Assembly (NCBI GenBank): GCA_965223775.1
Contig: OZ245021.1
Location: 5,069,517-5,133,516 of the forward strand
Direction of reading: 5' to 3'
From: Gammaproteobacteria bacterium
GTDB taxonomy: Bacteria > Pseudomonadota > Gammaproteobacteria > HK1
DNA: 64,000 nucleotides
In this document: positions 19,501-63,173 of the stretch, in pieces
Position numbering within the stretch: position 1 is the stretch's first letter
Layout: the number at the start of each line of letters is the position of its first letter
Position numbers and translations under genes: made by a program
Notes under the pieces: model-generated
Told to the model about the DNA's origin: nothing
Databases searched by the model: none
The model's input: only the letters and a program-made list of their open reading frames with translations

Positions 19501-19533
19501 TAGAGTCGGGCGGCCGGCCGCCCGTCCCCGGCT

Positions 19534-20316: not shown

Positions 20317-20667
20317 GAGATCGAACCTCCAATGTGAACCCACGGGCCGCCCGCCGCGAAACCGCCCGCTCGGATTCTGCGCCCCCCGTCATCCGGATGT
20401 CCATGACCCGCCCGCTCGACGCGCGGGCCGGCCGGCAGCCGCTCGCCGCGCCGTGCCGAGGCCACCCGAATGCGGCGCCAACCTGACCGAGGCGCTTCAC
20501 GCGCTCTACGCTCGCATCGCGCCCGGGGCGGTGCGAAGTTCCGGTTCCATGCGCTTCGCAATTGCTTCATCACCGACGCCGACCCGAGCCCATCGCGAAC
20601 CGGCCCCGTATCGGATGAATGCCTCGGGCCGGGAGGCCAACCTCGGCGAGACGGACGACTCCCCGGT

Positions 20668-38274: not shown

Positions 38275-38290
38275 GCGATGGGCGCGGCGC

Positions 38291-38520
38291 TAGCGCGGAA
38301 ATCTCACCGACTTTCGTCGCGAGGGCGCCGAGCCGTCGCGTTGACGGGCCGCACGGACAGAAGAAACGCGAGCGCTTCTTTTCGAAAGAGCGCTTGCGCG
38401 CTGGCCGAAGTCGTGGTCGACGCCAGCGCATTCGCGCTGTCGAAGCGGCTTGCGGGAGTACGGTCCGTCAGCGCGAGTGGATCGGTGTGCGCAGCAGAAA
38501 GTTGGTGAGATTTCCACGCT
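38291..38520. repeat. Palindromic MITE/REP-like element, copy 3 (inverted orientation)
   Basis: Its termini are GGAAATCTCACCGAC at the left end and GTTGGTGAGATTTCCACGCTAGC at the right end. The terminal CTAG provides the stop codon of the 38519..39088 gene. Confidence 0.8.
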
Positions 38521-45855: not shown

Positions 45856-46181
45856 CGGAAGGTCCCTCCATGCGGCGCGACCGGGACGGGCCGCGCCGGC
45901 TCGTGCGCGTCCCGGGCTCCGGCGACGATAGCACGCTCATGTCCGCTCCCCAAGCGACGATCCGGGGTCCGATGATGAAGCGGGAACGGGGTCCGAGTCG
46001 TCAGCAGATCTCCTCGACATTCGCAGGAATTCGCCCCGGCGTGACCACGCGCCGGACACTGTGGGAGCCATATCCGCACCGAGACCAATCGGCGAACGTC
46101 ACGACGTTTCGCGTTTCTACTCTGGCGTTCCCGGCCTCGCCATAGCTAACCGACACTTCCGGTGTTCCGGCTCGATTCGGG

Positions 46182-49100
46182 TCATTGCTCGGGAGCTAGC
46201 GTGATCCGACGATGCTCCGCCGCAATCATCCGCCAAGGTCCGCCACAGAGAATCCACTTGCCGGCGGTGTGGACCGGGTTTTCAATCGGCAGCACTTCGT
46301 AGCTGCCATTCTCCGTCCGCTCCACGACGTACAGGTACCAGGAATCCGCTGCCTGCCCATCCGACATCTCGAACGCCTTGTGTACCTGGGCACGGCTCAG
46401 CTCCACAACCTCGTCGCCGTCCCACGAACGTCCCCTCCCCTTCACTTCGATCAGGCGTACCGCCCCCGTCTCGGGATCGATACTGCGGAGATCCCAGCCC
46501 TGCTGATGTGGATCGCCGAATTCCGGATTGCGGCCAGACTCCCTTTCGTATTGCGCGGCAACTTTGCGATACACCTCGTCCCCAAGCAGTCCACCAGCGT
46601 CCCGGCCTCCTTCTTCGGCACCACTGGAGTCGTCGCCATCAGTGTCCGGCGCGATCTCCCCCTTCAACGCGTTCTTCAGTTCCTCCGTCTTGCGCTTCTG
46701 CAGGGCAAAGGCTCTGTCTCTGGTGAAGGAGCCACCCATCGAACCCGACTCGCTATGCTCAGGGCTGCCAGAGGTGCCGTCTTGGGTGACACTCGATACG
46801 TCGTCAGCCTGATCCGACCCGTCAAGCTCGGAATCACCGGACACATCCTCTTGTCGCACCGACTCATCCGCGTCCCTCCGCCTTCCCGCGGTGGGTTCGT
46901 CGGCACCCGTGGCCGGGGCGAGATCGCCATCCGGACCGGTTGCTCCCTCAACGCCCGGAGCGCGTTGGAACGTCGTCGGCAACTCGAAATCGGGAGCAAA
47001 GGAGCGCACGAACTTGTCGGCGGCAAGAACGAAATCGTCTGCGGCGTCGATTGATGCCAGCATTGCAGTGAGATCCGCCGACAGGTCGGCGCGCTGGCCG
47101 AAGGAAAGAGACCTCAGAAGTTCCTTGGCCGCGTCCGCGCCGAACTGGATTGGCCGGCCGGCGACGGTCAGGTCGCCCTCGTGCAGGCGCGCGTTCACGG
47201 GTACGTTCTCAGCGGACATGCCTTTGACGCTGATCTTGAGATCGAGCCGTTCGAGGCGGCGAAGACGCCACTCCATCGTCGGCTCGATAACCGCGCCCTC
47301 GTCCTCCTCCAACCTTCCGATACCCTTGACATGCCGGAGTAGTTGGCAGATGAGCTCGAATCGGGGCGTCCAGACGTCTACAGACCGTTCAGTTCCCTCA
47401 CTCCAATCCATCTCGACAATGGCCGACAAGCGCTCCAAACCAAGCTTCTCCGCTGTGCGGAGCCGCTGATCGGGCGAATTGCCCAAGTGGCCGCCGGTGG
47501 CGGTTCGCAACTCGCCTTGCCCGGGAAAGAACCTTCGGTTCTCAATGTCGTCGAAGTAGATTTCTTCCTCGGACGGGCACATCCATTCTCGCCCATCGAA
47601 AACCGCCGCATTGCGAACGACGCCATTCCATCGCTCCGCATGCAAGATGTTGTCGTTCATGTCCTCAAGACAGTATGCATACGCGGTTGGGAGAACGTTG
47701 CGTACTTTATTCGCCAACCCGTCGGGCGAGAATCGGGCGCACGCCCAGACCTTCCGGAGGTAAGCCAGCGCCTGCTCCCCCGTCGTCGTTTCTGAGAACT
47801 GGTACGGGAACGCCGAGTGTTCCCACTCTTCACGCAGCCTTTCGTGGAATCGATCCAAGGGGGCGATCCAGCCACCGAGCGCCCCACGTGACCGGCCCCC
47901 AACTCGCTGAACGATTCGGGCGAATGGGATACGTTCGTTGTCCTCGGACAGGACGACGAGCTCCGGCACGGCCTGCTCGAAACGGAGTTTGTCTTCGTCC
48001 GTTTCAACCTGTTCGCGAACCTCTCGAAGCAGTTCGGCAAGCGCTTCTGGGGGGAGCTGTGACCCCACTCTCAAGAGTCGTTGGAGCGCGGTCGCATCGG
48101 GAATCGCCACGCCGAACCTCACGCCCTCCTGCTCCAGCACGGACATGAGGTCGCCCGAGAGCACCGCGACCGGTGCATCCTCCCGCGCCGGATCGGCCTC
48201 CCGGAGCACGTCTTGCGGGCGCCTGAGCTGGCCGTCGCAGCAGGGCACCCATGCGAGTCGGGACAGTTTGACCGCCCAAGTGCTTGGAAGCTCTCCCCGG
48301 CGGGAATGCGGGTAGCGGTAGAAATACTCGACCCCCCTGCGCCCCTTGCCGCGTAGCTTGCTGAAGCCGTCATCAAGCCATGCGCTGATCGCCGCTCGCA
48401 CCTCGGTGGGCGCGTTCGTATCTGGAAGGGAAGGTTCGATGTCGAAGTCCCGGAGCACGTAGCCGCTATTGTTCGACTCGCTGATCGCCTCGACTTTCAA
48501 TCCCAGAAACTCTGCCGCCTTCCCGCGTTCCCAGCGGTTGACTCTGTCCTCGATCGACCGAACTGCAAGCGTACCTTTGACGCCGGCCGCCTCGAAGAAC
48601 GTGCGCCATTCCTTCGGGTCGGCGGTCTCCGGATCCTCCAGATACGCCGCAGCGATTACGGGCGCATTCGGAAACAGGCATCCTCGGCTCTGGCCGCGTA
48701 CGTAGGGCTCCGCCAGGAGCGCGTCTCCGACCGGGACGCCTCGCCGGCCGCTCGCCGACTCCACGAGCACTCGGATCAGCAGGTCATGGCGCTTTCGATG
48801 TGCGGCCCAGCGGCCGAGTGGAACGAGCGCAGACCACTCCGGCGTTGGCGAGGCGTCCAGCCGGTTCACGGCGGCTTCGACAAGCTCACGAAGACCGATA
48901 CCTCGGGCGCGAGTCTCGATCCATTCCCGGGCCTGCGACAGATGGACCCGTTCCCCGCGCTTCCTCCCGGCACCTTGGCGGAGCGCCCCGCTCCACTCCT
49001 CCGCGAGGCAGCGGTCCTCGCCCGGAATGAATTGCTCCATCAATCTGCGCGTTTCGGGTCCACCCGGCTCACGCTCGGACGGAAGCGGCTCGTTGAAAAA

Positions 49101-50600
49101 CACCGATTCATCGACCGATCGCCACGCCCCGCCCGCCGTTCGGATGCAAGGGAGACTGGCCGTCGACCAAGCGTTTCCCGAGGCAAGCTCGGAGATGACG
49201 CCCCAAATGCGGAATAGCAAGTCACGGCGCGTCGATTCCTCGTCTTCGAGTTTCTCCCACCAACTTTCGAGCCCGCCGGCCCAAGCGTGTTCCAGGTCGC
49301 CAGACGACATCTCGGAGAGAAGGCCAGCCTGATCCAGTAACTCGTACCCACCCTCTCCGAGCACCCGATCGACGAGCACAGGGCCTCTCAGGAGCGCCGC
49401 CGGCCGAAGGGTGGGCTGCTCCTCGAACGCTTCCGCGAATGGCACGGGCGGAACGATCGCTTCCCTCGGCTTCGCGAATCCCAAGGCGCCGGTTCCCTCG
49501 GTCCACACGGGGATCACCGAAGCGTTCTCAAGCAGATCCTTCAGACGGGACAGCCAGCGTTCTTCGGCGAGGATCGCTTCGAGGCCGCCAGCCTCTTGCG
49601 AAGGCGCTGCGAGCACCGCGAAAGCCGCCTTGGCCGCATCGGGCTCCGAGAACGTGCGGGCCGCCCAACCGAGGACGCTCGCCAGCACGTCTGCAATTCG
49701 ATCCATGATGTCTCGTTGCCACGGATCGTCCTCTATCTCTCCGAGCCCCGTACGCGAGATGTTCAACAACCAGTCCGCGTTAACATGAACTCCAAGGGGA
49801 AGCATCACCTCCGTGGGCAACGTGGCGTAAATCCGGCCTTTCTGTGGGGGCACGGGCAGCCCTCGGTCATCCAAGGGCAGTATCCCGAGCACGCGACGCG
49901 CCCGGGCCGCTACGGCGTACACCAGCTCGCGCTCCTCCTTGGTGGGCTGAATCTTCCGATACTCGAGAAATCGTCGAATCGCCGCCCGCGAAGGCTTGAA
50001 CTCCACGGGAAAGAGCTGCCAACGCCGTTCCTCGCCGTCAGAACGAGCTATTGCCGTCATGCTTCCGTGGACTACCCCGTCGTCAACGCTCAGCGTCCAG
50101 ACCTGCCCGCCCGCGTCGAGGCGCTCCAGATTCGATGCCGCCAGGACCGCGAGGAGCGTGGGATCGTCGTCGGACAGAAGACGAGCCAGATCGGATTGAA
50201 GGTCCGTAGCGGGGTCGAAGCGCTTACACAGTTCGAACCGGGTAGTGAATCCCGCTTCCGGCTCCGCAATCCCATCGTCCCAGATTGGCAGGACCGCCCC
50301 CAGCGGCTCGATCTGAACGTCGCCGTATTCCTCGCCGACGACCTGGGACATTTCGTAGCGGAACGTCCAGTCCCACCCGGAGACCCGAGCTTCTCGGAAC
50401 CGCCCGAAGACACTCTTGAAGCCGATTCCCATGAATCCGACGGAGGCGGCGCCCTTGGTCGATCGGAAGACCTTCGACAGTCCCTCGACATCCTTCTTTT
50501 CGATCGGATTCTGTCCGTCGTGCTGAAAGATCAAGTTATCGCCATCGTCCGAGAGCCGGAACGCGATGGAACGGGCGCCGGCATCCAGCGCGTTCTGCAC
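46182..50600 (-). CDS. Large NOV/sacsin-like protein: an N-terminal GHKL (Hsp90-like) ATPase motif and a C-terminal DUF3883 (predicted restriction-endonuclease-like) domain
   Basis: 1472-aa ORF. The N-terminus carries ELVQNALDAGA, a sacsin/GHKL N-box-like motif. The C-terminus carries GWDLRSIDPETGAVRLIEVKGRG...WYLYVVER, a DUF3883 signature. The locus is visibly lower in GC than its flanks. The start is uncertain: the frame stays open for 57 codons upstream with no ATG, GTG or TTG, then an in-frame TAG, then a GTG with a perfect RBS. Confidence 0.75.
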   Translation of the reverse strand: MQNALDAGARSIAFRLSDDGDNLIFQHDGQNPIEKKDVEGLSKVFRSTKGAASVGFMGIGFKSVFGRFREARVSGWDWTFRYEMSQVVGEEYGDVQIEPLGAVLPIWDDGIAEPEAGFTTRFELCKRFDPATDLQSDLARLLSDDDPTLLAVLAASNLERLDAGGQVWTLSVDDGVVHGSMTAIARSDGEERRWQLFPVEFKPSRAAIRRFLEYRKIQPTKEERELVYAVAARARRVLGILPLDDRGLPVPPQKGRIYATLPTEVMLPLGVHVNADWLLNISRTGLGEIEDDPWQRDIMDRIADVLASVLGWAARTFSEPDAAKAAFAVLAAPSQEAGGLEAILAEERWLSRLKDLLENASVIPVWTEGTGALGFAKPREAIVPPVPFAEAFEEQPTLRPAALLRGPVLVDRVLGEGGYELLDQAGLLSEMSSGDLEHAWAGGLESWWEKLEDEESTRRDLLFRIWGVISELASGNAWSTASLPCIRTAGGAWRSVDESVFFNEPLPSEREPGGPETRRLMEQFIPGEDRCLAEEWSGALRQGAGRKRGERVHLSQAREWIETRARGIGLRELVEAAVNRLDASPTPEWSALVPLGRWAAHRKRHDLLIRVLVESASGRRGVPVGDALLAEPYVRGQSRGCLFPNAPVIAAAYLEDPETADPKEWRTFFEAAGVKGTLAVRSIEDRVNRWERGKAAEFLGLKVEAISESNNSGYVLRDFDIEPSLPDTNAPTEVRAAISAWLDDGFSKLRGKGRRGVEYFYRYPHSRRGELPSTWAVKLSRLAWVPCCDGQLRRPQDVLREADPAREDAPVAVLSGDLMSVLEQEGVRFGVAIPDATALQRLLRVGSQLPPEALAELLREVREQVETDEDKLRFEQAVPELVVLSEDNERIPFARIVQRVGGRSRGALGGWIAPLDRFHERLREEWEHSAFPYQFSETTTGEQALAYLRKVWACARFSPDGLANKVRNVLPTAYAYCLEDMNDNILHAERWNGVVRNAAVFDGREWMCPSEEEIYFDDIENRRFFPGQGELRTATGGHLGNSPDQRLRTAEKLGLERLSAIVEMDWSEGTERSVDVWTPRFELICQLLRHVKGIGRLEEDEGAVIEPTMEWRLRRLERLDLKISVKGMSAENVPVNARLHEGDLTVAGRPIQFGADAAKELLRSLSFGQRADLSADLTAMLASIDAADDFVLAADKFVRSFAPDFELPTTFQRAPGVEGATGPDGDLAPATGADEPTAGRRRDADESVRQEDVSGDSELDGSDQADDVSSVTQDGTSGSPEHSESGSMGGSFTRDRAFALQKRKTEELKNALKGEIAPDTDGDDSSGAEEGGRDAGGLLGDEVYRKVAAQYERESGRNPEFGDPHQQGWDLRSIDPETGAVRLIEVKGRGRSWDGDEVVELSRAQVHKAFEMSDGQAADSWYLYVVERTENGSYEVLPIENPVHTAGKWILCGGPWRMIAAEHRRITLAPEQ

Positions 50601-50938
50601 CAGCTCGAATACGTAGATCCAACGATGCTCGAAGGTCAGCTCGAATGCGCGTAGCGCCCCTCGGCCGTCCGGCGTTCCGTAGGACGTCTGGTTGTCACGA
50701 GCAAGTAACTCGACGAAATCTCTACGTGTCAGTTCTGCACGGCTTCTCTGAGTTCTGCCTTTCCAGAGGGGCTACTCACGACCCGACTCGGTTGCGGGGT
50801 ACTTCACGTTCCGTTCCTCCTACCGGTTGCGCCGCAGGTTGGGTTTCCGGCAGTCCCGGACAGGGCCGAGCCAAGTGCTACCTCGCCCGGATCGTCTCCG
50901 TCGTCTGCAAGTCTTTGGGCTCCGACGGCTGGCGCCGG

Positions 50939-51277
50939 CTATCGCGCGAGATGGGCGAGGAGGCCGGGGTCGAGCGGGTCGCAGGGCCGGCCGAGGAGGC
51001 GCTCCGCCGCGGGCCACAGGCCGCCGAGGTCCGGGACGACCTCGCTCCGGCCGGTCTTCGTGCGCAGCACGTAGGACGAGGCGGCCCACTCCGCGAGGAC
51101 GAGCCCCAGCGGGTCGAGCACCCGGTTGACGAGCCGGACCCGCTCCTGGCGCTCCCGCGCCGGGGTCACGCGCGGGCGCTCCGCTGCGCCTGCGTCGGAC
51201 CCGCCGAAGATGGCCGGGCTCGCGGCCCGCTCGGTCCAGTGCCGCTCGCCCCCGAGCACCCCGCAGAGGCCGCACAC
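50939..51277 (-). CDS. Hypothetical protein
   Basis: 112 aa with high-GC third-position codon usage. It lies 8 bp downstream of the deacetylase gene on the same strand. No recognisable domain. Confidence 0.35.
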   Translation of the reverse strand: MCGLCGVLGGERHWTERAASPAIFGGSDAGAAERPRVTPARERQERVRLVNRVLDPLGLVLAEWAASSYVLRTKTGRSEVVPDLGGLWPAAERLLGRPCDPLDPGLLAHLAR

Positions 51278-51284
51278 GGTCCGC

Positions 51285-52295
51285 TCAGTCCGCGGCCGCG
51301 ACCTGCGTCGGGCTCGTTCCGCGCGGGGAGCGGGCCCGGAAGTCGTCCGCGATCTCGTCGAAGGTGCAAAAACGCACCCCCGGATGGGACGAGATGTACT
51401 CGTAGATCCGTTCGTGCATGAGCAGCACCTGGGGGCGCCCCGAGACGTCCGGGTGGATCGTCATCGTGAACACCGCGTAGTCGTACTCGCGGTACACCCA
51501 GTCGAACTGGTCCCGCCACAGTTGCTCGATGTCGCGCGGGTTGGCGAACCCGTAGCTGTTCGGGGCGGTCTTGATGAACATCATCGGCGGGAGATCGTCG
51601 AGGTACCAGCTTCCCGGGATGTCGATGAGGTCGGTCTCCTCGCCCCGAACGAGCGGCTTCATCCACTCGCTCGGGTGCTTGGAGTAGTCGATCTTGGTCC
51701 AACTGTCGCCCACCCGCACGTAGAACGGGTGGAAGTCGTTGTTCATCAGGCTGTGGTCGTACTTGATGCCGCGCTTGAGGAGCAGCTCGTTGGTATAGGG
51801 GCTGAACTCCCACCAGGGTGCGACGTAGCCGGTCGGCGACCGCCCGCAGAGCCGGTCGATGAGGTCGATGCACTTGTCGAGCACCGCCTCCTCCTGCTCC
51901 GGGGTCATCGCGATGGGATTCTCATGGGAGTACCCGTGGACCCCGATCTCGTGGCCGGCGTCCGCCACCATCTTGCACTCGTCGGGGAAGGTCTCGATGG
52001 AGTGGCCGGGAATGAACCACGAGGTGCGGATCCCGAACTTGTCGAAGAGCCGGACCATGCGCGGCACCCCGACCTCGCCGGCGAAGAGGCCGCGTGAGAT
52101 GTCGCACGGGGAGTCCTCGCCGCCGTAGGAGCCGAGCCAGCCGGCGACCGCGTCCACGTCCACCCCGTAGGCGCAGAGGATCTCCTTGCGCCCGCCCGGC
52201 CGGGCGAGAAACTCCTGCCGCACCTCGGGCGACGGGCCGGAGTCCGGCGCCGCGTTCGAATGCACCAGCGGCCGCGGCCGATATCGTTCACGCAT
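51285..52295 (-). CDS. Polysaccharide deacetylase family protein (NodB/PuuE-like)
   Basis: The ATG at 52295 follows an RBS (GGAGTGAAGGGG). A NodB homology domain shows metal-binding His and Asp residues (HGYSH, D..D). Confidence 0.75.
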
Positions 52296-52909
52296 CCCCT
52301 TCACTCCTCGTGTTGCGCCGGGCGCTCCGGCGGCCATGACGGCGGGCCGACCGAAGCCTTCTGAAGCCTTCTCGCGAATCGCCGCCGTCCTTTCCCCGAG
52401 CCGGCCGGCCCGGACCAATGTAGGAGACAAGTCGCCCGGTGGCAACCGGAACGCGCTGCCGCCGGGAGGCAGATTCGATTCGGCCGCAATTCAACCTCGA
52501 CCGAATCCGCAGAACGCACGGAGCGCCGTCAGCCGTGGCCACGGCGCGCCGGACGCACGAGTTCCAAGTTTCCGAGCCGTCGCATCGCACGCACTTCCGG
52601 CGGCCAGGCCTCCGGACCTTCGTCTTTCCCCGGTGCCCGGCGTGAAGTCTTCACGATGGCCGCCGGCCGTCAGGAGACACGGCCGGCCGCGCCGCATTGC
52701 GCCCTCCCCCTCCCTCGCGCCGCTCCGCTCCCTCGCTATACTGAAGGGAGATCGGGGGAAGCTCGGGGGGAGCTTGGCGCCGCCCCGTCTCCGGGAGGGC
52801 CGGGCCGCACCGCCGCACCGCCGCCCGCACTCGCGCGCCAGAGAATCCGGGGTTCCCGCCGGGTGCCGCGATGGACCGTTTCCACGAATCCGACTTCAGA
52901 GGATCGAAG

Positions 52910-53560
52910 ATGACCGAAGACGCCGCCCTCGCCCAGGCCCGCGCCGAGTTCGCCGCGCTCCGCGACACCATCGAGCGGCTCGACGATGCGGGGCTCGACC
53001 TCCTGTTCCGGGTCGCCCGCACGCCGAACGCCTTCGACGAGACGCGCGACGTGCCGGACGAGCTGCTGCGCGCGGCCTTCGACATCGCCCGCATGGGGCC
53101 GACATCGGCGAACTCGCAGCCGATGCGCATCATCCTTGCCCGGAGCGCGGAGGCGAAGGAACAGCTCGCGCCCGCGCTCTCGGAAGGCAACCGGGAGAAG
53201 ACGATGGCGGCGCCGGTCACCGCGATCATCGGCTACGACACCGAGTTCTGGCGGGACTCCCCCCGCACCTTCATCCGCGACCTCGGGCCCACCTTCGCCA
53301 GCGCTCCGGATCGGGCGGAGGTGGCCGCGTTTCGCAACGGCACCCTTGGCGCCGCCTACTTCCTGCTCGCGTGCCGGGCGCTCGGGCTCGACTGCGGCGC
53401 CATGTCCGGCTTCGACAACGCGGCGGTCGACGAAGCGTTCTTCGCCGGGACCAGCACGAAGTCGAACTTCCTCTGCAACCTCGGGTGGGGCAGGCCGGAG
53501 AGCGTCATGGGTCCCCGTCTCTACCGCTACGAGTTCGACGAGGTGTGCCGGTACGCCTGA
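52910..53560 (+). CDS. Nitroreductase-family protein, RutE/YdjA-like (malonic semialdehyde reductase-like)
   Basis: RTPNAFDE...GPTSANSQPMRIIL...GYD... RutE-like motifs, about 216 aa. Confidence 0.7.
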   Translation: MTEDAALAQARAEFAALRDTIERLDDAGLDLLFRVARTPNAFDETRDVPDELLRAAFDIARMGPTSANSQPMRIILARSAEAKEQLAPALSEGNREKTMAAPVTAIIGYDTEFWRDSPRTFIRDLGPTFASAPDRAEVAAFRNGTLGAAYFLLACRALGLDCGAMSGFDNAAVDEAFFAGTSTKSNFLCNLGWGRPESVMGPRLYRYEFDEVCRYA

Positions 53561-53788
53561 CCGGCGAGCGCCGCGGGCCGCCGCCGAGTACGAAGGCCAC
53601 CGCCCGGAGGGGCGGAGGGCCGAGCGCGAGGGCAGCCGGCCGCGAAGGGGCGCCGGAGAGAGGCCCACGGGGGAGGGAACCGCCCGCTTTGGAATCGCCA
53701 TGCGAGCGCGAGGAGACATCTCCGGCCGAATCCGGAAATTGCGGTGTGACGAAGGTTCCCCACGAGCGCAAGGAGACGACATCGGGCC

Positions 53789-54850
53789 ATGAATGACACC
53801 GATACCACGGCCTCCACGACCCGCCCACCGCCCGGCTCCGGCTCCGGCCCGTACCGGCTCGTCGGCAGCAACGGTTCGCCGTATTCGATCAAGCTCCGCG
53901 CGATCCTTCGCTACCGCCGCCTGCCCTTCGTCTGGGAGCTCCGCACGGAACGCAACCGGGCCGAGTTCGCGGACCTGCGTCCGCCCGTCATCCCGATCCT
54001 CCAGTACCCGGAGGACGGGAGCTTCCACGTCGATACCACCCCGATCGCCGAGACTCTCGAAGCACGCCACCCGGATCGGCGGTCGATCCTTCCGGACGAC
54101 CCCGCGCACGCCTTCTTCTCCTACCTCATCGAAGACATGGCGGACGAATGGCTCACCAAGCCGATGTTCCACTACCGGTGGGCGTACGACGCCGACATCC
54201 GCTACGCGGGCCTCTGGATCGCCGACGACTTCTATCCCGACCGCACCGGAGAGGCGCGCGAGTCCACCGCACGTGATTTTGCGAAACGCCAGATCGAGCG
54301 CATGCCGCTCGTCGGCTGCACGCCCGAGAACGCGCCGGTGATCGAAGAAAGCTACCGCCGTGTCCTGGCCGCCCTCGAGCCGCACGTCGGCGCGTACCGA
54401 TTCCTCTTCGGGACCCGGCCGGCCCTTGCCGACTTCGGCCTCTTCGGCCAACTGAAGACGCTCGCCACCGACCCGACGCCGCTCGCGATCATGCGCGCGG
54501 ATGCGCAGCGCACCGAGAGCTGGGTTCGCCAGCTCGACGACGCCTCCGGCATCGAGGGCGAATGGTTGGGGGCGGACGATCCGCTTCCGCGAGCGGTCTC
54601 CGAACTGCTGCGGCTCTGCGGGGAGGTGTATCTCCCGTTCCTCGCGGCCAACGCGGCGGCGGCGGCGAAGGGAGAGGACGAATTCGAGGTGGAGCTCCTG
54701 GGCCGGCCGTTCCGGCAGGCCGCGTTCCGCTACCAGGTCAAGTGCCTCGCCGAGCTCCGGCGGCGGCTCGAAGGGCTGGACGAAGACGTGCGCGCGCAAG
54801 TCAGGCGTACGCTCGAAGACGTCGGCGCCTGGGAGGCCCTCGCCGGCTGA
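53789..54850 (+). CDS. Glutathione S-transferase family protein
   Basis: Thioredoxin-like N-terminal domain (YSIKLRAILRYRRLPF...PILQYPEDG) and a C-terminal alpha-helical GST domain. Confidence 0.7.
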   Translation: MNDTDTTASTTRPPPGSGSGPYRLVGSNGSPYSIKLRAILRYRRLPFVWELRTERNRAEFADLRPPVIPILQYPEDGSFHVDTTPIAETLEARHPDRRSILPDDPAHAFFSYLIEDMADEWLTKPMFHYRWAYDADIRYAGLWIADDFYPDRTGEARESTARDFAKRQIERMPLVGCTPENAPVIEESYRRVLAALEPHVGAYRFLFGTRPALADFGLFGQLKTLATDPTPLAIMRADAQRTESWVRQLDDASGIEGEWLGADDPLPRAVSELLRLCGEVYLPFLAANAAAAAKGEDEFEVELLGRPFRQAAFRYQVKCLAELRRRLEGLDEDVRAQVRRTLEDVGAWEALAG

Positions 54851-54922
54851 ATCAGTCTCCCGGCACTTGCCGCGGCCGCGGTAGCGCCGACGGCCCGCCA
54901 ACACCGGCGCCAGCCCGCAACG

Positions 54923-55095
54923 ATCACCGATTTTCTGCCGCGGACGCCAATCTTTCGCTTCGCGCTCCCAGGAGGGCCACGGTCCAGGAAAGGCGGCGAT
55001 CCCCGGAATCCCGCGCTCCCAACCTGAGTCTTGTGCGTAATCAGGTTCTGCCTTGCAGCTTCGCGGCGCCCTCGCGACGAAAATCGGTGAGATAT
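54923..55095. repeat. Palindromic MITE/REP-like element, copy 4 (variant core)
   Basis: GATCACCGATTTTCTGCCGCGGACGCCAATCTTTCGCTTCGCGCTCCCA ... CTTCGCGGCGCCCTCGCGACGAAAATCGGTGAGAT. The arms are shared with the other copies but the centre differs. Confidence 0.75.
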
Positions 55096-55216
55096 GCGGT
55101 CAGTGTTCAACGCCTGATCACAGTCCGGAGATGCCCTTCCGAGAGGAGACGAGAAAAAGGTATACTTAGTCAATTACGAAGAAATTTTTTCGCTTGTCCG
55201 AACCCGACAGTTCCCT

Positions 55217-55516
55217 GTGCCCAAATTCGCGAATTCCCTGCCGCCGCTCGACTGCCTGCGATTCTTCGAGGCCGCCGCCCGACACCAGAGCTTCGCCCAT
55301 GCGAGCAAGGAGCTCGGCGTCACCGCCGCCGCCGTCGCCCACCGTATCCGCATGCTCGAGGGCCATCTTCGGACCGAACTCTTCGATCGCCGGCAGCGCA
55401 GCGTGCGCCTCAACCGCCGGGGGCGGTCCTACTTCGAGGAGGTGCAGCGCATCCTCCTCGACATTCGCGATACCACCGAGCTCCACGGCGATCGCAGGCG
55501 CTTGCGCGGCCGCTAG
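55217..55516 (+). pseudogene. LysR-family regulator fragment (HTH domain only), truncated at a repeat element
   Basis: The 99 aa align with the first 95 aa of the downstream full-length LysR (LPPLDCLRFFEAAARHQSF...ELGVTAAAVAHRIRMLE...RSVRLNRRGR). The stop codon TAG is the first 3 nt of repeat copy 5. No effector-binding domain follows. Confidence 0.6.
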
Positions 55517-55766
55517 CCCCGGAAAAATCACCGATTTCCTGGCTAGCGGACGCCAATCTGTCGCTTCGCGCTCCCAAGGTCGCCGCGGTAGCGGGCCGTA
55601 CTTCCTCAAGCCGCTTCGACAGCGCGAACGCGCCGGTGGCGGCTACGCCTTCAGCCAGCGCGCAAGCGCTCTTTCGGTCCGCGAAGCTGCGTAAGCAGAT
55701 GCGGCCCGCTACCACGGCATTCTGCTTCGCAGCTTCGCGGTGCCCTCGCGACGAAAATCGGTGATT
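55514..55766. repeat. Palindromic MITE/REP-like element, copy 5
   Basis: About 90% identical to copy 1 over about 250 bp, with the same terminal inverted repeats. Confidence 0.85.
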
Positions 55767-55888
55767 CTTCCGGGCTGGAAGCGGAACGCAGCGGGGCGGA
55801 ACGCGTCGCAGGATCTTGCTCTCGGCGCGCAGATGTGCTGCGATGAGATACTCACGTTTTCCCAACGGGCTCCGTCCGGACCTTCGCC

Positions 55889-56803
55889 GTGCCACTCCTG
55901 CCCCCGCTCGAAAGCCTGCGCTTCTTCGAAGCCGCCGCCCGACACCAGAGCTATGTCCTTGCCGGCAAGGAGCTCGGCGTCACCGCCGCCGCCGTGGGCC
56001 ACCGCATTCGCACCCTGGAAAAGCATCTCGGGGCCGAGCTCTTCGAACGCCAGCGGCACAGCGTGCGCCTCAACCGTCGCGGCCGCGTCTATCTGAAGGA
56101 AGTGCAGCGCATCCTCGCCGAGGTGCACGGCGCCTCCGAGCGCCAACGCTACACGCCCCGGCGGGTGCGCATCGTCTCGGTCGAGGCGGTGGCCGAGAAG
56201 TGGCTGCTGCCCAAGCTCACCTCGTTCAGGGCGGCCTATCCCGGAATCGCCATCGAGCTCGAGACCGACCACCGCGGCGTCGACCCGGCGCGGGGCGACT
56301 TCGACGCCTGGCTCGCCTATACCGGCGAGACCGCCGCGCCGCGCCCGGTGCCGCGGCGCGAGGACACGCTGCTCGAGGAGACGCTCTACGAGGAGGAGCT
56401 ACTGCCGGTGTGCAGCCCGGCGCTGCTCTCCGCGCGCGGCCGCCCCCGCGGCCCCGCCGACCTGCACGACTGGCCGCTGCTCTACGACCTCGGCTGGGAC
56501 GCCGACTGGTCGTACTGGTTCGGCTGCCAGAGCCAGCCCACCCCGGACCTCTCGCGGGCTTCGGGGTTCCGCCTTTACAGCATGCTGGTCCAGGCCGCGG
56601 CCAACGGGCTTGGTGCCGCCATCGGACGCCCGATGCTAATCGCCCACGAACTCGAACGGCGCGTCCTCGTGCCGCTCTTCGACCGCCAGGCCGGGGCGCC
56701 GGAGCGCTGCTGCCTGATCACTACCGCCGCCTCCCGGCAGCGGCCCGAGCTGCGGGCGTTTCGGGAATGGATCCTGCGCCAGGCGAGGGCGGCGGCCGTG
56801 TGA
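55889..56803 (+). CDS. LysR-family transcriptional regulator (GcvA-like)
   Basis: 304 aa from a GTG start. Contains an N-terminal HTH (LESLRFFEAAARHQSYVLAGKELGVTAAAVGHRIRTLE) and a C-terminal substrate-binding domain. Confidence 0.85.
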   Translation: MPLLPPLESLRFFEAAARHQSYVLAGKELGVTAAAVGHRIRTLEKHLGAELFERQRHSVRLNRRGRVYLKEVQRILAEVHGASERQRYTPRRVRIVSVEAVAEKWLLPKLTSFRAAYPGIAIELETDHRGVDPARGDFDAWLAYTGETAAPRPVPRREDTLLEETLYEEELLPVCSPALLSARGRPRGPADLHDWPLLYDLGWDADWSYWFGCQSQPTPDLSRASGFRLYSMLVQAAANGLGAAIGRPMLIAHELERRVLVPLFDRQAGAPERCCLITTAASRQRPELRAFREWILRQARAAAV

Positions 56804-56860
56804 CGCTCGGCGGCGGCGTCGAGCTCGCCGCGCACCGAACATGTGGCGCGGGCGGCGAGC

Positions 56861-57676
56861 TCAAGCAAGCCAACGCTTGCGGCGCCGGTAATGCTTGACA
56901 TCGCGGTAACTGCGGCGGCCGCCGACGGAAAGCCCAAGGTGGAATTCCTTGACATCCTCGTTTTCTCTCAGAGTCTCCGCCTCGCCGTCGAGGACGACGC
57001 GGCCGTTCTCGAGGATGTAACCGTACGATGCGTAACGTAGCGCGATCGCGGCGTTTTGTTCCGCGAGCAAGACGCTCACCTCTTCCTTTGCGTTGAGCTG
57101 GCTGACAATCGTGAAGATCTCGTCGACGAGCTGAGGGGCAAGTCCCATCGACGGTTCATCGAGCAAAATGAGTCTGGGGTGTGCCATCAGCGCCCGGCCG
57201 ATGGCCGTCATCTGCTGCTCACCGCCCGAGACATAACCGGCCTGACTCCTGCGGCGATCACGAAGCGCGGGAAAGTAGCTGTAGACCATTTCAAGATCCC
57301 GCACCAATTCGGCACGATTACTCTTGCGGGTATAGGCACCGGTGCGCAGGTTTTCCTCTACGGTCAAGTGCTCGAAGCAGCGACGACCTTCCATGACCTG
57401 AATGAGACCCTGCTCGACCAGATCGGCTGGATCGATGCCCTTCGTGCGCCGACCGCGGTACTCGATGGTGCCCTTTACGACCTCGCCGCGCTCGGACTGG
57501 AGCAGATTCGATATCGCCTTGAGCGTGGTGGTCTTTCCGGCGCCGTTGGCTCCGAGGAGGGCAATGATGCCCCCCTCGAAGACCTCGAGCGAAACACCCT
57601 TGAGCACCAGAATCACGTGATCGTAGATGACCTCGATGTTGTTGATGCTCAGACGGACGGGGGCATTTGCGCTCAC
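56861..57676 (-). CDS. livF: Branched-chain amino acid-type ABC transporter ATP-binding protein, LivF-like
   Basis: GANGAGKTT, VSGGEQQMTAIGRAL and LLDEPSMGLAP. Confidence 0.85.
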   Translation of the reverse strand: MSANAPVRLSINNIEVIYDHVILVLKGVSLEVFEGGIIALLGANGAGKTTTLKAISNLLQSERGEVVKGTIEYRGRRTKGIDPADLVEQGLIQVMEGRRCFEHLTVEENLRTGAYTRKSNRAELVRDLEMVYSYFPALRDRRRSQAGYVSGGEQQMTAIGRALMAHPRLILLDEPSMGLAPQLVDEIFTIVSQLNAKEEVSVLLAEQNAAIALRYASYGYILENGRVVLDGEAETLRENEDVKEFHLGLSVGGRRSYRDVKHYRRRKRWLA

Positions 57677-57680
57677 GGCG

Positions 57681-58385
57681 TCACCTTCCCTTGTTCAGGA
57701 CCTCGACCATTCCCTTGTTCAAGGGCACTCGGAGCCGAGCGACATCTCCGTACGCAGTGTGATGCCCTTCTCGCTCGCGTACTTTGCGGCGGAGGTCTCG
57801 ACCATCGGGCGCACGATCTCCCCCGTAGCTCGACTCGTGGTAGAGATTGGCGATCTTCAAGCCCGAGAGCTTGTCCATGCCGCCCTCTTTCATCCCGATA
57901 TATTTGATTTTCGCGGTATTCTGGCTCCAGTAGTTGGTCACGAGGGGAAAGATGTACGGAAACACGCGGCCGTCGCTCGCGTCCGTGCGACCGTATCCCA
58001 TCGAGATGACCGGGATCTTGTCGGCCGTCGCACGCTCGATGAGCCGGTAGGTGATACCGGTGCTCAGCGGCTGGACGATGCTTGCGCCCGTCGGGCCGGA
58101 GTTCTTGAGCCGCTCGTAGCACTCGACACCGCGATCGGAGTTGTAGGCGGTCTCGCATTCCTCCCAGGTCAGCGTGACCCCGCCGACGCCGCCATCGCGC
58201 AGATTGAGCAGCGTGTAGTAGTCCTCGATGCCGCCGAAGAAGCCGGTACCGCCCGCTGCGTAGGGCCCGGTTCGATGGACGAGCATGGGAAAGAACTGCT
58301 CGCTGTCCGCCGCCGGAACGGTGGCGAACGGCGTCGCCGCCAGTATTGCGGCAGCCAGGAAACTGAGTCCGATTCTGGTTTTCAT
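57681..58385 (-). pseudogene. Type I periplasmic binding protein (LivK-like), N-terminal fragment only
   Basis: Signal peptide (MKTRIGLSFLAAAILAATPFA) and the first lobe, then loss of similarity about 190 aa in. A +1 homopolymer shift (CCCCC at about 57820-57824) recovers only about 35 more SBP-like residues. The livF start follows 4 bp later, so the C-terminal half is deleted. Confidence 0.6.
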
Positions 58386-59363
58386 GAACGCTTCTCCTGT
58401 AAGTCGTTTCTGGTCACGCAGACACGGTTCTTCCTGCGAACGTGGGCTCGCAGGAAGCCGAAGCGAACCGCTCGGCGGCGGTTCTGGTACGCAAATGGCC
58501 ATGTGCGCATCTTTTTTTTGCCGATTTCCCACAACCGCGCGAGGCCGTTCGGCTCAACGATCAGGAACAAGATGATCACGCTGCCGAATATGATGAGCTC
58601 CAGGTTCGACAGCACGTCGCTCGACATCGTCCCGCCTGCAAACGTCGACGAGAGCGTATTCAGCACGACCGGCATCAGCACGATGAACGCCGCCCCGAGA
58701 AACGACCCCATGACACTTCCCAGCCCGCCGATGATGATCATGAAAAGGATCTGGAACGAGCGCGCCAGATCGAAGGCCTCGGTATCGGCATTGCCGACAT
58801 ACGTGAACACGTAGAGGCTGCCGGCCACGCCGCAGTAGAACGAACTGACCGCAAAGGCGAGCAGCTTCCCTCGGAGAAGCTGGACGCCGATGATCTCCGC
58901 CGCAATGTCCATGTCGCGGATCGCCATCCAGGTTCGCCCGGTAGGGCTGCGGATCATGTTCTTCGCCAGCAGCGCGAGTAGCACCACGACCGCCAGGGTC
59001 ACGAGGAATTTCGTCTCGGCGGTTGCGTTGGGCCCCGAGACGACGACGTTCAGCGGGGCCAGGAAGGCCAGGGGGCCTCCCTTCGGTCGCGAACGACCCG
59101 AGCAGGGTCCGCGTCGGGGCCGAGGCGACGCCGGCCGGGTCGTAGTTCGTGAACCAGCCAACATGGTCAAACAGCCACAGCAGGAAGAACTGCGCCGCGA
59201 GCGTCGCCACTGCGAGGTAAAAGCCCTTGATCCGCAGGCTTGGCAATCCGAAGACGATGCCGACCATGGCTGCAAACAGGCCGGCAATGAAGAAATCGAG
59301 AACCAGAGGGAGCTCCGGCAATCTGAGCGCGAGGTTGTAGCACGCGTATGCTCCGACGGCCAT
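58382..59363 (-). pseudogene. LivM-like permease. It has lost its N-terminal 150 aa and carries an internal frameshift
   Basis: The ORF 58554..59363 encodes LivM residues about 150-245 (AVGAYACYNL...LRIKGFYLAVATL). The C-terminal part (PLAFLAPLNVVV...IRDMDIAAEIIGV...GGLGSVMGS) continues in the frame of ORF 58382..59956. The frames join at a five-base homopolymer (GGGGG on the + strand) at 59071-59075. Confidence 0.65.
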
Positions 59364-59403
59364 GAGTAAGCGGGCAATCTGAGCCGTACTTGTCGCCTGG
59401 CTG

Positions 59404-59694
59404 TCAGTGTGAAGGTGGGTCGTGGTTGTGGTGCCCGAGGGCGGAGGGCAAGGGGTCGTGAGCGAAGAGCGACTTCCACATTCGTGGGGTGAGTTCGCGG
59501 ACGCGCTTGGTCGGATGCTCGCTGATGCGCTGCAGGACGTCGACCAGGTAGGTGTAGGGGTCCACGCCGTGCAGCCGGCAGGTGACCAGCAGACTCTGGA
59601 TGATACCCACCCGGCGGGCGCCGACCTCGGTGGAGGTGAACAGCCAGTTTCGTTTTCCCATGGGAATCGGAGGTAGTCGCGGCATGGCTCGGAA
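59404..59694 (-). mobile_element. IS66-family transposase C-terminal remnant (about 96 codons)
   Basis: RLPPIPMGKRNWLFTSTEVGARRVGIIQSLLVTCRLHGVDPYTYLVDVLQRISEHPTKRVRELTPRMW matches the IS66 TnpC C-terminal region. It is fused in frame to the LivH N-terminal fragment in ORF 59404..60072. Confidence 0.7.
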
Positions 59695-59958
59695 ACGCCG
59701 TGTCAGGAGGAACACGGCGGATACGGCGGCAAGCGCGATCGAAAGCCAGCCCGTCCAGTCCCAGAACGCGCCGGCCGCGCCGAATTCGAGCAGCAGCACG
59801 AAGGTCAGCGCGGCGAACAGGACCAGCGCGCCCTGGGCAAAGTTGAACACGCCCGACGCCTTGAAGATGAGGACGAACCCCAAGGCGACCAGCGAGTACA
59901 TGATCCCGGACAGGGCGCCTCCGATTACCACCTCGAGAAAGAACGCTACGGACCACAT
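59695..59958 (-). pseudogene. LivH-like permease N-terminal fragment (about 88 aa), truncated by the IS66 remnant
   Basis: MWSVAFFLEVVIGGALSGIMYSLVALGFVLIFKASGVFNFAQGALV... matches the LivH N-terminus. The rest of the gene is replaced by IS66-derived sequence. Confidence 0.6.
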
Positions 59959-60001
59959 GGCTCGTTCACGTTTCGTTCGACCCGGCGCCCATCGAAAGGC
60001 G

Positions 60002-61195
60002 CTAACCCTGACCCAGGTACGCCCGCACCACGACCGGGTCGGTGCGCACATCGTCCGGCTTGCCCTCGGCAATCTTCTCGCCGTGATCGAGCACGACCAC
60101 GATGTCGGAGATGTCCATGACCACGCTCATGTCGTGTTCGATGAGAATCATCGTCGTGCCCCATTCCTCGTTGATGTCGAGAATGAAACGGGCCATGTCC
60201 TCCTTTTCCTCGACGTTCATGCCCGCCATCAGCTCGTCCAGCAGGAGCACGGTCGGCTCCATCGCCAGGGCGCGGCCAAGCTCGACCCGCTTCTGGATTC
60301 CGTAGGGAAGACGGCCGACCGGCACGTTGCGGTATTCCTGGATCTCCAGGAAATCGATGATTCCTTCGACGTGCTTTCGGTTGCGGATCTCTTCGCGTTG
60401 GGCCCATCCCCAATACACCGCGTTCCAGAGGAAGTTGCTCCCGGTCTTGAGCAGCCGGCCGGACATGATGTTGTCCAGCGTTGTCATACCCTTGAACAGG
60501 GCGATGTTCTGAAAGGTCCGCCCGAAACCGAGCCGGGCGACGGCATTGGGAGCGAGACGGGTGCGATCGTTGCCCTCGAACACGATGCGGCCGGTGTTGG
60601 GGCGGTAAAAGCCGCTGATGACGTTGAGCATGGAGGTCTTGCCCGCGCCGTTGGGGCCGATGATCGAGAAGATCTCGCCGCGGTCGATCTCGAAGGTGAC
60701 CCCCTGCAGGGCGCGTATGCCGCCAAAACGCAGATGGATGTCCTCGACGCCGAGAAACGACGCGGTGGCCGACGGTGCGCCCAGATCGCGGCGTCGCCGC
60801 TTCCTGTCCATCAGTGCAACAAGCGCCTGGTCGCGCGTCTCGAAGAGATTCGCGCGAAACCGTTCTTCTCGCGCGCGCTCGCGAATCGTCTCGCGGGTCT
60901 CCTCGGTGGCGCTCACCCGGACCGTTCCGAGGCTGAACGCAATGTTCGATTGCTTTCCCCGGGCGGCGAACCGAGTCCACACGCCGGGGACGATCACGCA
61001 CCCGGCGTAGTTGACAAGGAAGTACCAGCGACGTCCCGACGCCGCGAGCTGGCGGTCGACCTCGTCGTAGAAATTGTCGATCTCACCGTGGCTGGTGAAA
61101 TGAAGCGAGGAGAAATCGACCTCCATCACGTCCAGGGCGTCGTGAAACACAACGCGGCCCCGGATCGTCTTGTCCGTCACTGCCTGTGCTTCCAT
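60002..61195 (-). CDS. livG: LivG-like ABC ATP-binding protein with a roughly 140-aa N-terminal extension of unknown function
   Basis: An ATG at 61195 lies 11 nt after the acyl-CoA ligase stop. Residues 1-140 (MEAQAVTDKTIRGRVVFHDALDVMEVDFSSLHF...RRWYFLVNYAGCVIVPGVW...) have no domain I recognise. They are followed by a canonical NBD (GPNGAGKTS, LPYGIQKRVELGRAL, LLLDELMAGMN). Confidence 0.7.
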   Translation of the reverse strand: MEAQAVTDKTIRGRVVFHDALDVMEVDFSSLHFTSHGEIDNFYDEVDRQLAASGRRWYFLVNYAGCVIVPGVWTRFAARGKQSNIAFSLGTVRVSATEETRETIRERAREERFRANLFETRDQALVALMDRKRRRRDLGAPSATASFLGVEDIHLRFGGIRALQGVTFEIDRGEIFSIIGPNGAGKTSMLNVISGFYRPNTGRIVFEGNDRTRLAPNAVARLGFGRTFQNIALFKGMTTLDNIMSGRLLKTGSNFLWNAVYWGWAQREEIRNRKHVEGIIDFLEIQEYRNVPVGRLPYGIQKRVELGRALAMEPTVLLLDELMAGMNVEEKEDMARFILDINEEWGTTMILIEHDMSVVMDISDIVVVLDHGEKIAEGKPDDVRTDPVVVRAYLGQG

Positions 61196-61206
61196 TGCCC
61201 GGCCCG

Positions 61207-63173
61207 CTACTGCGGTACCTTCGGGACTCGCGGGCTGAAGCAGGCCGCATCGCGGATCTTCAGGTCGCCACGCAGGGTCCCCGTGCTGCCGTCCTCGAAG
61301 GTCACCTGGGCCTCGACTTCGCAGTGTTCCCGGTCCGAATAGAGCGCTTCCACCAGGGCGTCGTACCGTTCGGCGATGAAGTGCCGCCGCACCTTGCGCG
61401 TGCGCGTAAGTTTCGGCGTCGTCGGCATCGAGCTCCTTGTGCAGAATGAGAAAGCGCCCGATCTGCGATCCCCCAAGATGGGAATCGGAGGCGAGTTCCC
61501 GGTTGACTCTCTCGATATGGCCCTGGATGAGGTCATGGACATCGACCTTGCCGACGAGGTCCTGGCAACTGACATACGCGACCCCCTGGCGTTGGGCCCA
61601 GTTCCCGACCGCCTGGAGATCGATGTTGATGAATGCGACGGTGCTGTCGCGTTCGTTGCCGAAGGCAACCGCCTCCTTGATCTCGGGGAAGAACTTGAGC
61701 TTGTTCTCGATGTACTTGGGGGCGAACACGGTTCCGTCGCTGAGCTTTCCCACGTCCTTGACCCGGTCGATTATCTTCAGGTGCCCGGCCTCGTCGAAGT
61801 AGCCGGCATCTCCGGTGCGAACCCAACCGTCGGGGGTCTTGGTCTCGCTCGTGGCTTGCGCGTTCCGGTGGTACTCCCGGAACACACCGGGGCTGCGATA
61901 CACGACTTCGCCATCGTCCGCGATCCGGACCTCGACGCCCGGTGCCGGCGTTCCGACCGTATCCGGTCTGACTTCCTCGTCCGGGTGCATCGTCACGAAC
62001 ACGGCCGCCTCGGTCTGACCGTAGAGTTGCTTGAGATTCACTCCGAGGGAGCGATAGAACGCGAAGATGTCGGGGCCAAGGGCCTCGCCCGCGGTATACG
62101 CCAGCCGGATACGCGAGAATCCCAGTGTATTGACCAGCGGATCGAAGACGAAGGCGCGCCCGAGGGCATACAACACGCGGTCGACCAACCGCACCGGCTT
62201 TCCATCGAGAATACTTGTGCCCGCGCGCTGCGCGACCCCCATGAAGTAGTGGAACAGCCTGCGCTTCGGCCAACCGGTATCCTCGATACGGATCATCACC
62301 TCGGTGAGGATGTTTTCCCAGATCCGCGGCGGGGCGAAGAAATAGGTCGGACCGATCTCGTGCAGATCGTGCATCACCGTCGCCCCCGACTCCGGACAGT
62401 TGACGCAGAAGCCGGTGGCATAGGACTGGGCGAAGGAGAAGATGTTGTCGCCGACCCAGGCCATGGGAAGGTAGGCCATGACCTCCTCATCCTCTCCGAG
62501 ACGATCGCGCTCGGCCGCGTTGCGGGCCGTGATGACGAGGTTGTCGAAAGAAAGGACGACCCCCTTGGGCCTTCCGGTCGTTCCGGACGTGTAGAGGATG
62601 ACGGCAGGGTCCGCTGCTTCGCCCATGGCTACTTCGTGGAGAAAGAAACCCGGGTTCTCCGCATCGTGTTCGCGGCCCCGCGCCTGCACCTTCGCGAATT
62701 CGTGCAGGAACGGATGGTCGTAACGGCTCAAGCCTCGAGGATCCTCGTAGACCACAAGCCGTACACTCGGGCAGCGCTCTTGTACTTCCAGAACCTTGTC
62801 AACCTGTTCCTGATCCTCCAGGAGGACATAGGCTGCTTCGGCGTGGTTGAGGACGTACGAGACCTCTTCGGCCACGGCGTCCTGGTAGACCGGGACGGGG
62901 ATGGCGCCCAGCGACTGGGCCGCGGTCATCGCCCATATAGAGCTGCGGGCGGTTGTCGCCGATGATGGCGACCTTGTCGCCCCGATTCGCACCCAGCGCG
63001 GCGAGGCCGCACGCCAATGCCCGCACCTCGTCCAGGACTTCGCGCCACGTCCAGCTTTGCCAGATGCCATGGTCCTTCTCCCGCATGGCGGGACGGTCTG
63101 GCCGCCGCCGGGCGTTCCGCAGGAGCAGCTTGGGAAACGTGTCGTGGACTTGGGCCTCGATGTCGGCGGACAT
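61207..63173 (-). pseudogene. Long-chain acyl-CoA synthetase (FadD-like AMP-binding enzyme) interrupted by two +1 frameshifts
   Basis: N-terminus from the ATG at 63173 (RBS GAGGGGG): MSADIEAQVHDTFPKLLLRNARRRPDRPAM...GDKVAIIGDNRPQLY. Frame changes at about 62934-62940. The middle part carries YTSGTTGRPKGV. Frame changes again at an AAA run at about 61411-61413. The C-terminus is PKLTRTRKVRRHFIAERYDALVEALY, which is ORF 61207..61668. Confidence 0.65.

Follow-up and report, generated by a model that had tools for sequence, protein, structure and literature searches.

Decay of an acyl-CoA ligase and liv-type ABC importer cluster downstream of a LysR gene in a gammaproteobacterial genome

Gene content and lesions of the cluster

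A stretch of 64,000 nucleotides (nt) from a Gammaproteobacteria bacterium (GenBank assembly GCA_965223775.1, contig OZ245021.1, positions 5,069,517 to 5,133,516), here called the window, carries on its minus strand, at positions 56861-63173, a cluster for an acyl-CoA ligase and a LivGHMKF-type ATP-binding cassette (ABC) importer. All the named genes were found with Pfam profiles and by tblastn with intact relatives. An earlier note, made from the letters of the window only, had described the cluster as decaying after the insertion of an IS66-family insertion sequence (IS). The cluster is a genuine local pseudogenisation, ordinary in kind, and it gives a well-resolved picture of operon decay. 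We regard it, with a probability of about 0.85, as what remains, without function, of an accessory operon for a ligase and a liv-type importer that was gained by horizontal transfer.

Related loci were collected by a LivG scan with one genome per species, which gave 80 loci, and extra contigs came from the protein collection and from JGI metagenomes; gene order was compared in 83 related loci. The native order, ligase-livG-livH-livM-SBP-livF-paaK-like (SBP, solute-binding protein), is complete in 57 of them once livG is counted, and the loci outside these 57 are mostly truncated contigs. In most of the 83 loci livG has no N-terminal extension and fell under the coverage filter. The paaK-like gene lies 3' of livF in 58 loci. 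The surviving pieces in the window keep the order and orientation seen in most of the set, and the paaK-like gene alone is absent. The order ligase-G-H'-IS-'M-K'-F had been called scrambled, but it is the native one.

Three intact relatives (L001, L081 and L083) encode a ligase of about 650 amino acids (aa), LivG of 391 aa with the N-terminal extension, LivH of about 300 aa, LivM of 358 aa, an SBP of 436-452 aa, LivF of 270-282 aa and a PaaK-like ligase of 412-436 aa. These loci and L091 and L092, which belong to Betaproteobacteria, Methylomirabilota and alphaproteobacterial genomes or metagenome-assembled genomes, have the gene set, order and orientation of the window. The closest clusters are L091 and L092 (75-78% identity in livM), and they were used to read each lesion at codon level. 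Known clusters of ligase, LivGHMKF (HAAT family, TC 3.A.1.4) and PaaK-like ligase show 55-78% amino-acid identity to the window and have subfamily features in common with it: a putative STAS-like N-terminal domain on LivG, an insertion of about 100 aa in LivH and a long loop in LivM. Unlike these clusters, the window has just livG and livF whole; lesions disrupt the genes for the ligase, LivH, LivM and the SBP, and a PaaK-like gene is lacking. Both ATPases, the LivG-type one with its BCA_ABC_TP_C tail and the LivF-type one, are full-length; a complete pair of BPD_transp_2 permeases (LivH, LivM), a complete two-lobed Peripla_BP_6 binding protein and an unbroken AMP-binding ligase open reading frame (ORF) were not found in the window. 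Long plus-strand ORFs opposite the cluster (57627-58814, 59582-61342 and 61376-62965) were treated as antisense shadows typical of GC-rich DNA, and those scored had lower GC content at third codon positions (GC3; 0.68 and 0.73).

The FadD-like AMP-binding ligase is a pseudogene at 61207-63173 (minus strand). It is read by tblastn in three frames (63143-62937, 62935-61331 and 61413-61231), and the Pfam AMP-binding match is divided over two ORFs, at profile positions 3-61 and 61-384. The first shift is an extra A at 62936, where the window has CTC TAT A TGG GCG and L092 has CTC TAC TGG GCC, and no homopolymer is present. The second is a change from A2 to A3 at 61411-61413, with GCC GAA A CTT ACG in the window against GGC GAA TTG ACG in L092. 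Removing 62936 and 61412 gives a clean ligase ORF of 654 aa with no further stop. Both sites fall within the places proposed earlier for two +1 shifts, but neither belongs to a homopolymer of more than 3 nt. By chance the middle reading frame of the ligase stays open across shifted, meaningless sequence as far as livG, giving an ORF of 1022 aa (60002-63070, minus strand) that gene-calling software might annotate as a fusion of ligase and ABC ATPase. This apparent fusion, like the chimera of LivH and IS66 at 59404-59958, is an artefact of the decay and not a new protein.

The livG-type ATPase is an intact ORF of 397 aa (60002-61195, minus strand) with Pfam ABC_tran and BCA_ABC_TP_C matches, and by tblastn it is 71% identical to L081 across the full length. 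It carries P322L in the DEP motif of Walker B, which is shared by none of 120 homologues. LivG residues 1-140 (60776-61195, minus strand) include a region of about 135 aa at the N-terminus with no Pfam match and with strong conservation, 15 columns being invariant in 62 sequences. An AlphaFold2 model of this domain had pLDDT 89.8, and the top Foldseek matches in the PDB were nearly all STAS or anti-sigma-factor-antagonist structures (TM 0.54-0.63, E about 1e-3). From the model, the region would be a STAS-like domain fused to the ABC ATPase. The livF-type ATPase is an intact ORF of 271 aa (56861-57676, minus strand) with a Pfam ABC_tran match and 72-75% identity over the full length by tblastn; three of its substitutions hit residues shared by all 69 homologues. 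Walker A and signature motifs are intact in both ATPases.

The livH relic (59692-59958, minus strand) keeps codons 1-89 of about 402 and matches positions 3-67 of 269 of the BPD_transp_2 profile. It follows LivH of L091 and L092 until LLTRRF, which ends at 59692, and is then fused in frame to the C-terminus of an IS66 transposase. A fusion with 88 aa of LivH had been proposed; the fusion stands, with 89 codons kept. LivH of the closest subfamily (L091 1742-2968, L092 4475-5683) has about 402-405 aa, not about 300. Its insertion of about 100 aa is hydrophobic and follows residue ~60, and the window relic contains the start of it (FWDWTGWLS). LivM of the same subfamily has a loop about 16 aa longer.

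The IS66-family piece (59366-59691, minus strand) is the 3' end of an element with the last ~95 transposase codons, and the profile search supports the family assignment of the earlier note (DDE_Tnp_IS66_C, E=1.5e-13). The transposase gene stops at 59406-59404, and the right terminal repeat ends in CCCGCTTAC at 59366, matching the right end of ISAzo19. The remnant is 65-70% identical in amino acids and 72% in nucleotides to ISAzo19 and Thiolapillus elements, and covers residues 456-533 of 539 of ISAzo19. The terminus CCGCTTAC of ISAzo19 (Aromatoleum aromaticum EbN1 plasmid 2) and of the IS66 element of Thiolapillus brandeum pTBH10 is the same as in the remnant, and the distance from right terminus to stop is similar in all three. 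In L084, where ISAzo19 has the right end ACCGCTTAC, an 8-bp duplication borders the element. Compared with ISAzo19, the window keeps only the final 326 nt, with no left end, tnpA or tnpB; Pfam found the C-terminal DDE_Tnp_IS66_C motif alone, and no DDE_Tnp_IS66 catalytic domain. Of the terminal inverted repeats, which start GTAAGCG, the right end is seen and the left end has been lost. One copy of the 8-bp target duplication would be the flank TCATGGCC at 59365-59358, the other having gone with the deletion. The earlier note had advised looking for an inverted repeat and a target duplication near 59360-59404, and of these the right terminus is intact at 59366, while the second copy of the duplication is gone.

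The bases after the IS end, TC ATG GCC GTC GGA, correspond to codons 82-86 of livM (F M A V G) and keep the register of L091 and L092. Because these codons directly follow the IS terminus in register, we take the junction to show that livM was hit at codon 82/83 by an IS66-family element, which lies in the orientation of the operon. The other side of the remnant likewise shows that a later deletion ran from livH codon 90 into the transposase gene and removed about 1.26 kb of the operon and about 87% of the IS. In this deletion livH codons 90 to ~402 and livM codons 1-82 were lost.

The livM relic (58484-59365, minus strand) begins at codon 83 of 375 and is found in two frames by tblastn and as two BPD_transp_2 fragments. 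At the shift the window has GCG ACC GAA GGG A GGC CCC CTG, where L091 and L092 read ATE(D/G)GPL. Dropping the A at 59078 gives ATEGGPL, whereas dropping a C of the C5 run at 59071-59075 gives ATEGRPL with an extra substitution. Since the C-run reading needs this additional substitution, the more parsimonious account of the aligned codons is an inserted A at 59078. The C5/G5 run in which the earlier note had placed the shift is three bases away. The truncation of the 5' end and the frameshift claimed for livM are both present, but 82 codons are lacking, not about 150. The livM stop codon is replaced by CAG (58486-58484), while 71 of 72 homologues stop two residues past WPF, and the frame stays open to 58382, reading 34 codons through into the SBP start.

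The SBP relic (57719-58385, minus strand) matches positions 5-151 of 343 of the Peripla_BP_6 profile. Codons 1 to ~187 (58385-57822) are joined out of frame to the final ~33 codons and the native stop (57820-57719), across a deletion of about 226 codons (aa 186-411), and the sequence where the two parts meet is TACGGG|GGAGATC. The tail, one base out of frame, reads EIVRPMVETSAAKYASEKGITLRTEMSLGSECP and then stops at 57721-57719; it aligns with the ends of the L001, L083, L091 and L092 proteins, including the terminal MSLGS(D/E)C motif. The gene is indeed missing over half its length. It had been described as cut after one lobe, but the deletion is internal and its own 3' end and stop are still present, and the supposed shift in a CCCCC run at 57820-57824 is the out-of-frame junction of this deletion. 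The four homopolymer frameshifts proposed at first are three insertions of a single A, none in a run of more than 3 nt, and one deletion junction. Comparison with related clusters supported the pseudogenes of the earlier note and went against the scrambled order, the homopolymer sites and the truncation of the SBP. The earlier note did not mention the loss of the livM stop, the absence of the seventh gene or the intact right end of the IS. The seventh gene, for the PaaK-like ligase, is absent in the window, where the livF stop is only 57 nt from the stop of a convergent host LysR gene; this spacer (56804-56860) forms the left border of the cluster, with a drop in GC3 and a loss of homology.

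Origin of the cluster and variation of its site

GC content of the cluster is 0.60-0.64, compared with about 0.70 in the flanks on the left side, and its GC3 is 0.74-0.86, compared with 0.85-0.95 in typical genes of the window. At the left border GC3 falls from 0.90 (LysR) to 0.74 (livF). Among 5.8 billion proteins, none matches livG better than one at 78% identity. The host lineage, by contrast, has been sampled densely, and LysR homologues at 78-88% identity number in the hundreds. This distant best match despite the good sampling of the host, together with the composition, indicates that the cluster was probably acquired horizontally. Scans of the window with Rfam and for tRNAs gave no hit, and hence no integration site linked to a tRNA can be seen there; the plasmid collection had no near match to the cluster. 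The LuxR-type gene at the right window edge has a counterpart in none of the fetched loci. Elsewhere in the window, three Uma2-family paralogues (putative restriction endonuclease fold) lie within 30 kb, all on the minus strand (17233-18096, 19534-20388 and 45025-45936), and a NOV_C-domain protein of 1472 aa (46182-50600) has a GC3 of just 0.73.

The host LysR beside the cluster has relatives at 88-100% identity, and one of them (P0262) is identical to it. The host belongs to a lineage of the Pseudomonadota; for its GltD, the named sequences that match best come from metagenome-assembled genomes of Gammaproteobacteria, at about 70-74%. The sister contig L090 has the same left-hand genes as the window, namely those for the NOV_C protein, a deacetylase, a nitroreductase, a glutathione S-transferase, a LysR fragment and LysR. 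Most of these genes differ by 0.1-0.4 mismatches per 100 nt (about 99.7% identical), and the deacetylase by 1.5. Beyond LysR and the 57-nt spacer, all that L090 has of the cluster is the final 232 nt of livF (56861-57092), followed by an end of about 50 nt of a repeat resembling a miniature inverted-repeat transposable element (MITE) and then by unrelated genes, which from L090 11261 onwards are one for 338 aa and then genes of an ABC transporter. In L086 and L087, which are 95% identical in LysR, homology ends at 56794 and nothing of the cluster is kept; they carry a fragment of a group-II-intron maturase in its place and rejoin L090 further on. Since the window, L090 and L086/L087 differ 3' of LysR, the site is variable between strains. 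On this comparison of contigs, the window and L090 evidently go back to an ancestor that had the cluster, which is now being deleted.

Two further differences were seen among these contigs. The intergenic segment between the NOV_C gene and the deacetylase (50601-51284) has 5.9 mismatches per 100 nt against L090 and may be hypervariable or replaced. L087 and L088 are on one ENA contig of 6.25 Mb (at 5.80 Mb and 6.24 Mb), so that the LysR module and the downstream ABC genes occur there twice; the second copy is at the contig end, and a circular-overlap artefact or a real large duplication could explain it.

The MITE-like element has about 245 nt with terminal inverted repeats of ~22 nt (CCCGGAAAAAATCACCGATTTTC) and folds into a single long hairpin (-134 kcal/mol). 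At least five copies or fragments are in the window (7392-7636, 55513-55778, 54909-55090, 19308-19501 and 38289-38475), and a terminal fragment at L090 11202-11251 is exactly at the breakpoint of the liv-cluster deletion. A helix-turn-helix (HTH)-only LysR fragment of 99 aa (55217-55516) is 79% identical in nucleotides to the start of the complete LysR gene (55889-56803), which lies 660 nt downstream. Two MITE-like copies bracket the fragment, and the fragment and LysR module are kept in L086, L087, L089 and L090 in differing genomic contexts. The spot downstream of LysR may be a hotspot of insertion and deletion driven by the MITE-like element. In that case the decay series from the window through L090 to L086/L087 would be MITE-associated deletion and not random illegitimate recombination, and the three identical single-A insertions might reflect one mutational process; we consider this proposal doubtful.

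The operon might also have been broken before it arrived, with the IS66 insertion and some of the deletions having taken place in a donor or a mobile element, so that a dead passenger block was transferred. We think this possible but rather unlikely. GC3 of the IS66 remnant is 0.81, like the cluster and not like the host, and its nearest relatives are ISAzo19-like elements of beta- and gammaproteobacteria; the 64-kb window has no other copy of the element, and it finds no match in the IS66 gene of L089, a related contig. Yet the window is only 64 kb of the host genome, and a full-length matching IS could lie elsewhere in it. The ligase has no extra stop codons, which suggests that the small lesions are recent, and the L090 deletion means that decay is active in the host lineage. 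The IS66 insertion may or may not have been the first, causal hit, and some of the lesions may be older than the transfer.

Mutation or sequencing error

The question of error was judged by indirect tests on the assembled sequence. If the three 1-nt shifts were consensus or polishing errors, the ligase and the rest of livM would be in frame and just the two large deletions would be real. An error would also allow the perfect ligase ORF of 654 aa after removal of two bases, one candidate site of the livM shift adjoins the C5 run, and the related contigs are long-read metagenome assemblies, as the window may be. However, all three shifts are extra A bases (TAT|A|TGG, GAA|A|CTT and GGG|A|GGC) outside runs longer than 3 nt, and the one A8 run of the cluster (58512-58519) is in frame. 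The other coding sequence of the window (47.9 kb in ~40 ORFs) has full-length Pfam matches or no visible split, and no frameshift was detected there, although it contains 150 homopolymer runs of at least 5 nt, 27 of them of at least 6 nt. At a uniform error rate, the probability that all three shifts hit the 5.8 kb of cluster coding sequence is about 0.0013. The pattern of a homopolymer artefact, with indels in long runs and spread over the assembly, was not found in the window.

The L090 assembly is 98.6% identical to window 45950-57092 in nucleotides (11.2 kb), and none of the 9 indels between them is in the shared gene body; eight are intergenic, and three of these lie close together at the stop of the deacetylase gene, in a stretch that can be aligned in more than one way. 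The cluster genes carry substitutions at invariant residues as well. We therefore judge the error explanation improbable. The earlier note had argued that the damage is local and that it is genuine pseudogenisation rather than random sequencing error, and both statements hold: about 40 other ORFs of the window have full-length Pfam matches, the HTH-only LysR fragment is the sole other relic among its genes, and the sister contig L090 has lost nearly the whole cluster. Moreover, the two deletions of 0.7-1.3 kb are too large for base-calling errors, and by themselves they abolish transport.

Constraint was tested at alignment columns on which at least 95% of the homologues agree, by counting how often the window deviates there. 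The window ligase has 9 deviations (homologue median 2), a number reached or exceeded in 3 of 74 homologues. For livM there are 4 deviations (median 0; none of 72 homologues with as many or more), for livF 6 (median 1; 4 of 69) and for livG 6 (median 1; 3 of 120). The window proteins thus exceed about 95% of their homologues. Measured in aligned columns, these counts show an apparent relaxation of constraint on the cluster proteins.

Several points weigh against the picture of an acquired and decayed operon. The GC3 difference is moderate. The window copy is somewhat divergent (mean identity 0.56-0.71 against 0.58-0.77 for the other copies), which explains part of the excess of deviations. The closest intact copies are just 75-78% identical, so that the ancestry of the junctions and the order and timing of events had to be inferred. 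The evidence for the three 1-nt insertions is the assembled sequence, and L090 is a metagenome contig at 6x coverage. Finally, the right border of the block is past the end of the window.

An assembly artefact, with collapse or a chimera at the IS66 and SBP junctions, is very improbable. IS elements are classic breakpoints of misassembly and the junctions rest on an assembly, and an exact search of JGI metagenomes with the IS66/livM junction found no match and so no second assembly of the broken cluster. Nevertheless, only 326 nt of the IS are present, with a precise terminus that abuts livM in register with homologues; the SBP junction retains the tail of the gene, its stop and the normal spacing to livF; and the sequence from LysR through the spacer to the 3' end of livF is reproduced in the independent L090 assembly. 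That parts are still used, with livG and livF as orphan ATPases for other permeases or the ligase read by programmed frameshifting, is scarcely credible, since the complete ORFs of livG and livF with their intact motifs need no special cause (five independent hits would by our estimate spare 2 kb of 6.3 kb with a chance of about 0.15), both carry the changes at invariant sites described above (P322L in Walker B of livG, three in livF), the three shift sites have no common slippery-site logic, and L090 has lost livG and most of livF.

Course of the decay and role of the intact operon

The intact operon would have consisted of the FadD-like acyl-CoA ligase, LivG/LivF, LivH/LivM, the Peripla_BP_6 SBP and, as is usual, the PaaK-like second ligase. 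The block sits in the strain-variable spot just downstream of the host LysR gene. An IS66-family insertion in livM was followed by the deletion across livH, livM and the IS, and a second deletion took ~226 codons within the SBP gene. Single-A insertions disrupt the ligase twice and livM once, where the stop was also lost, and the sister strain has deleted all except 232 nt of livF. With transport lost, purifying selection would have weakened, so that deletions and small indels could build up, along with changes of invariant residues. Inactivation followed by complete deletion is the usual path of bacterial gene decay.

In Rhodopseudomonas palustris, none of 22 SBPs annotated for branched-chain amino acids with a mismatch between ligand and annotation bound Leu, Ile or Val, and the ligands of SBPs beside CoA ligases were fatty, dicarboxylic or aromatic acids (PMC3223731). 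Judged by these ligands, the ancestral operon most likely served to take up an acid of this kind and to activate it with CoA. By this analogy the substrate of the intact operon, given here as a class only, was most likely a hydrophobic organic acid (fatty, dicarboxylic or aromatic). The genes RPA3723-3725 of R. palustris, beside pimFABCDE, are a similar case in that a transporter with a COG0683, Peripla_BP_6-like SBP adjoins an acyl-CoA ligase as in the cluster (PMC3223731). Their gene content and order differ from the cluster, and the likeness drawn here is one of function in the intact form.

For annotation, the cluster ORFs should be labelled as pseudogenes, and beyond this the case has little importance. 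The window sequence proves accurate enough that its frameshifts deserve serious attention. The locus captures the dismantling of an acquired operon in progress, and three stages of it can be seen in near-identical strains.

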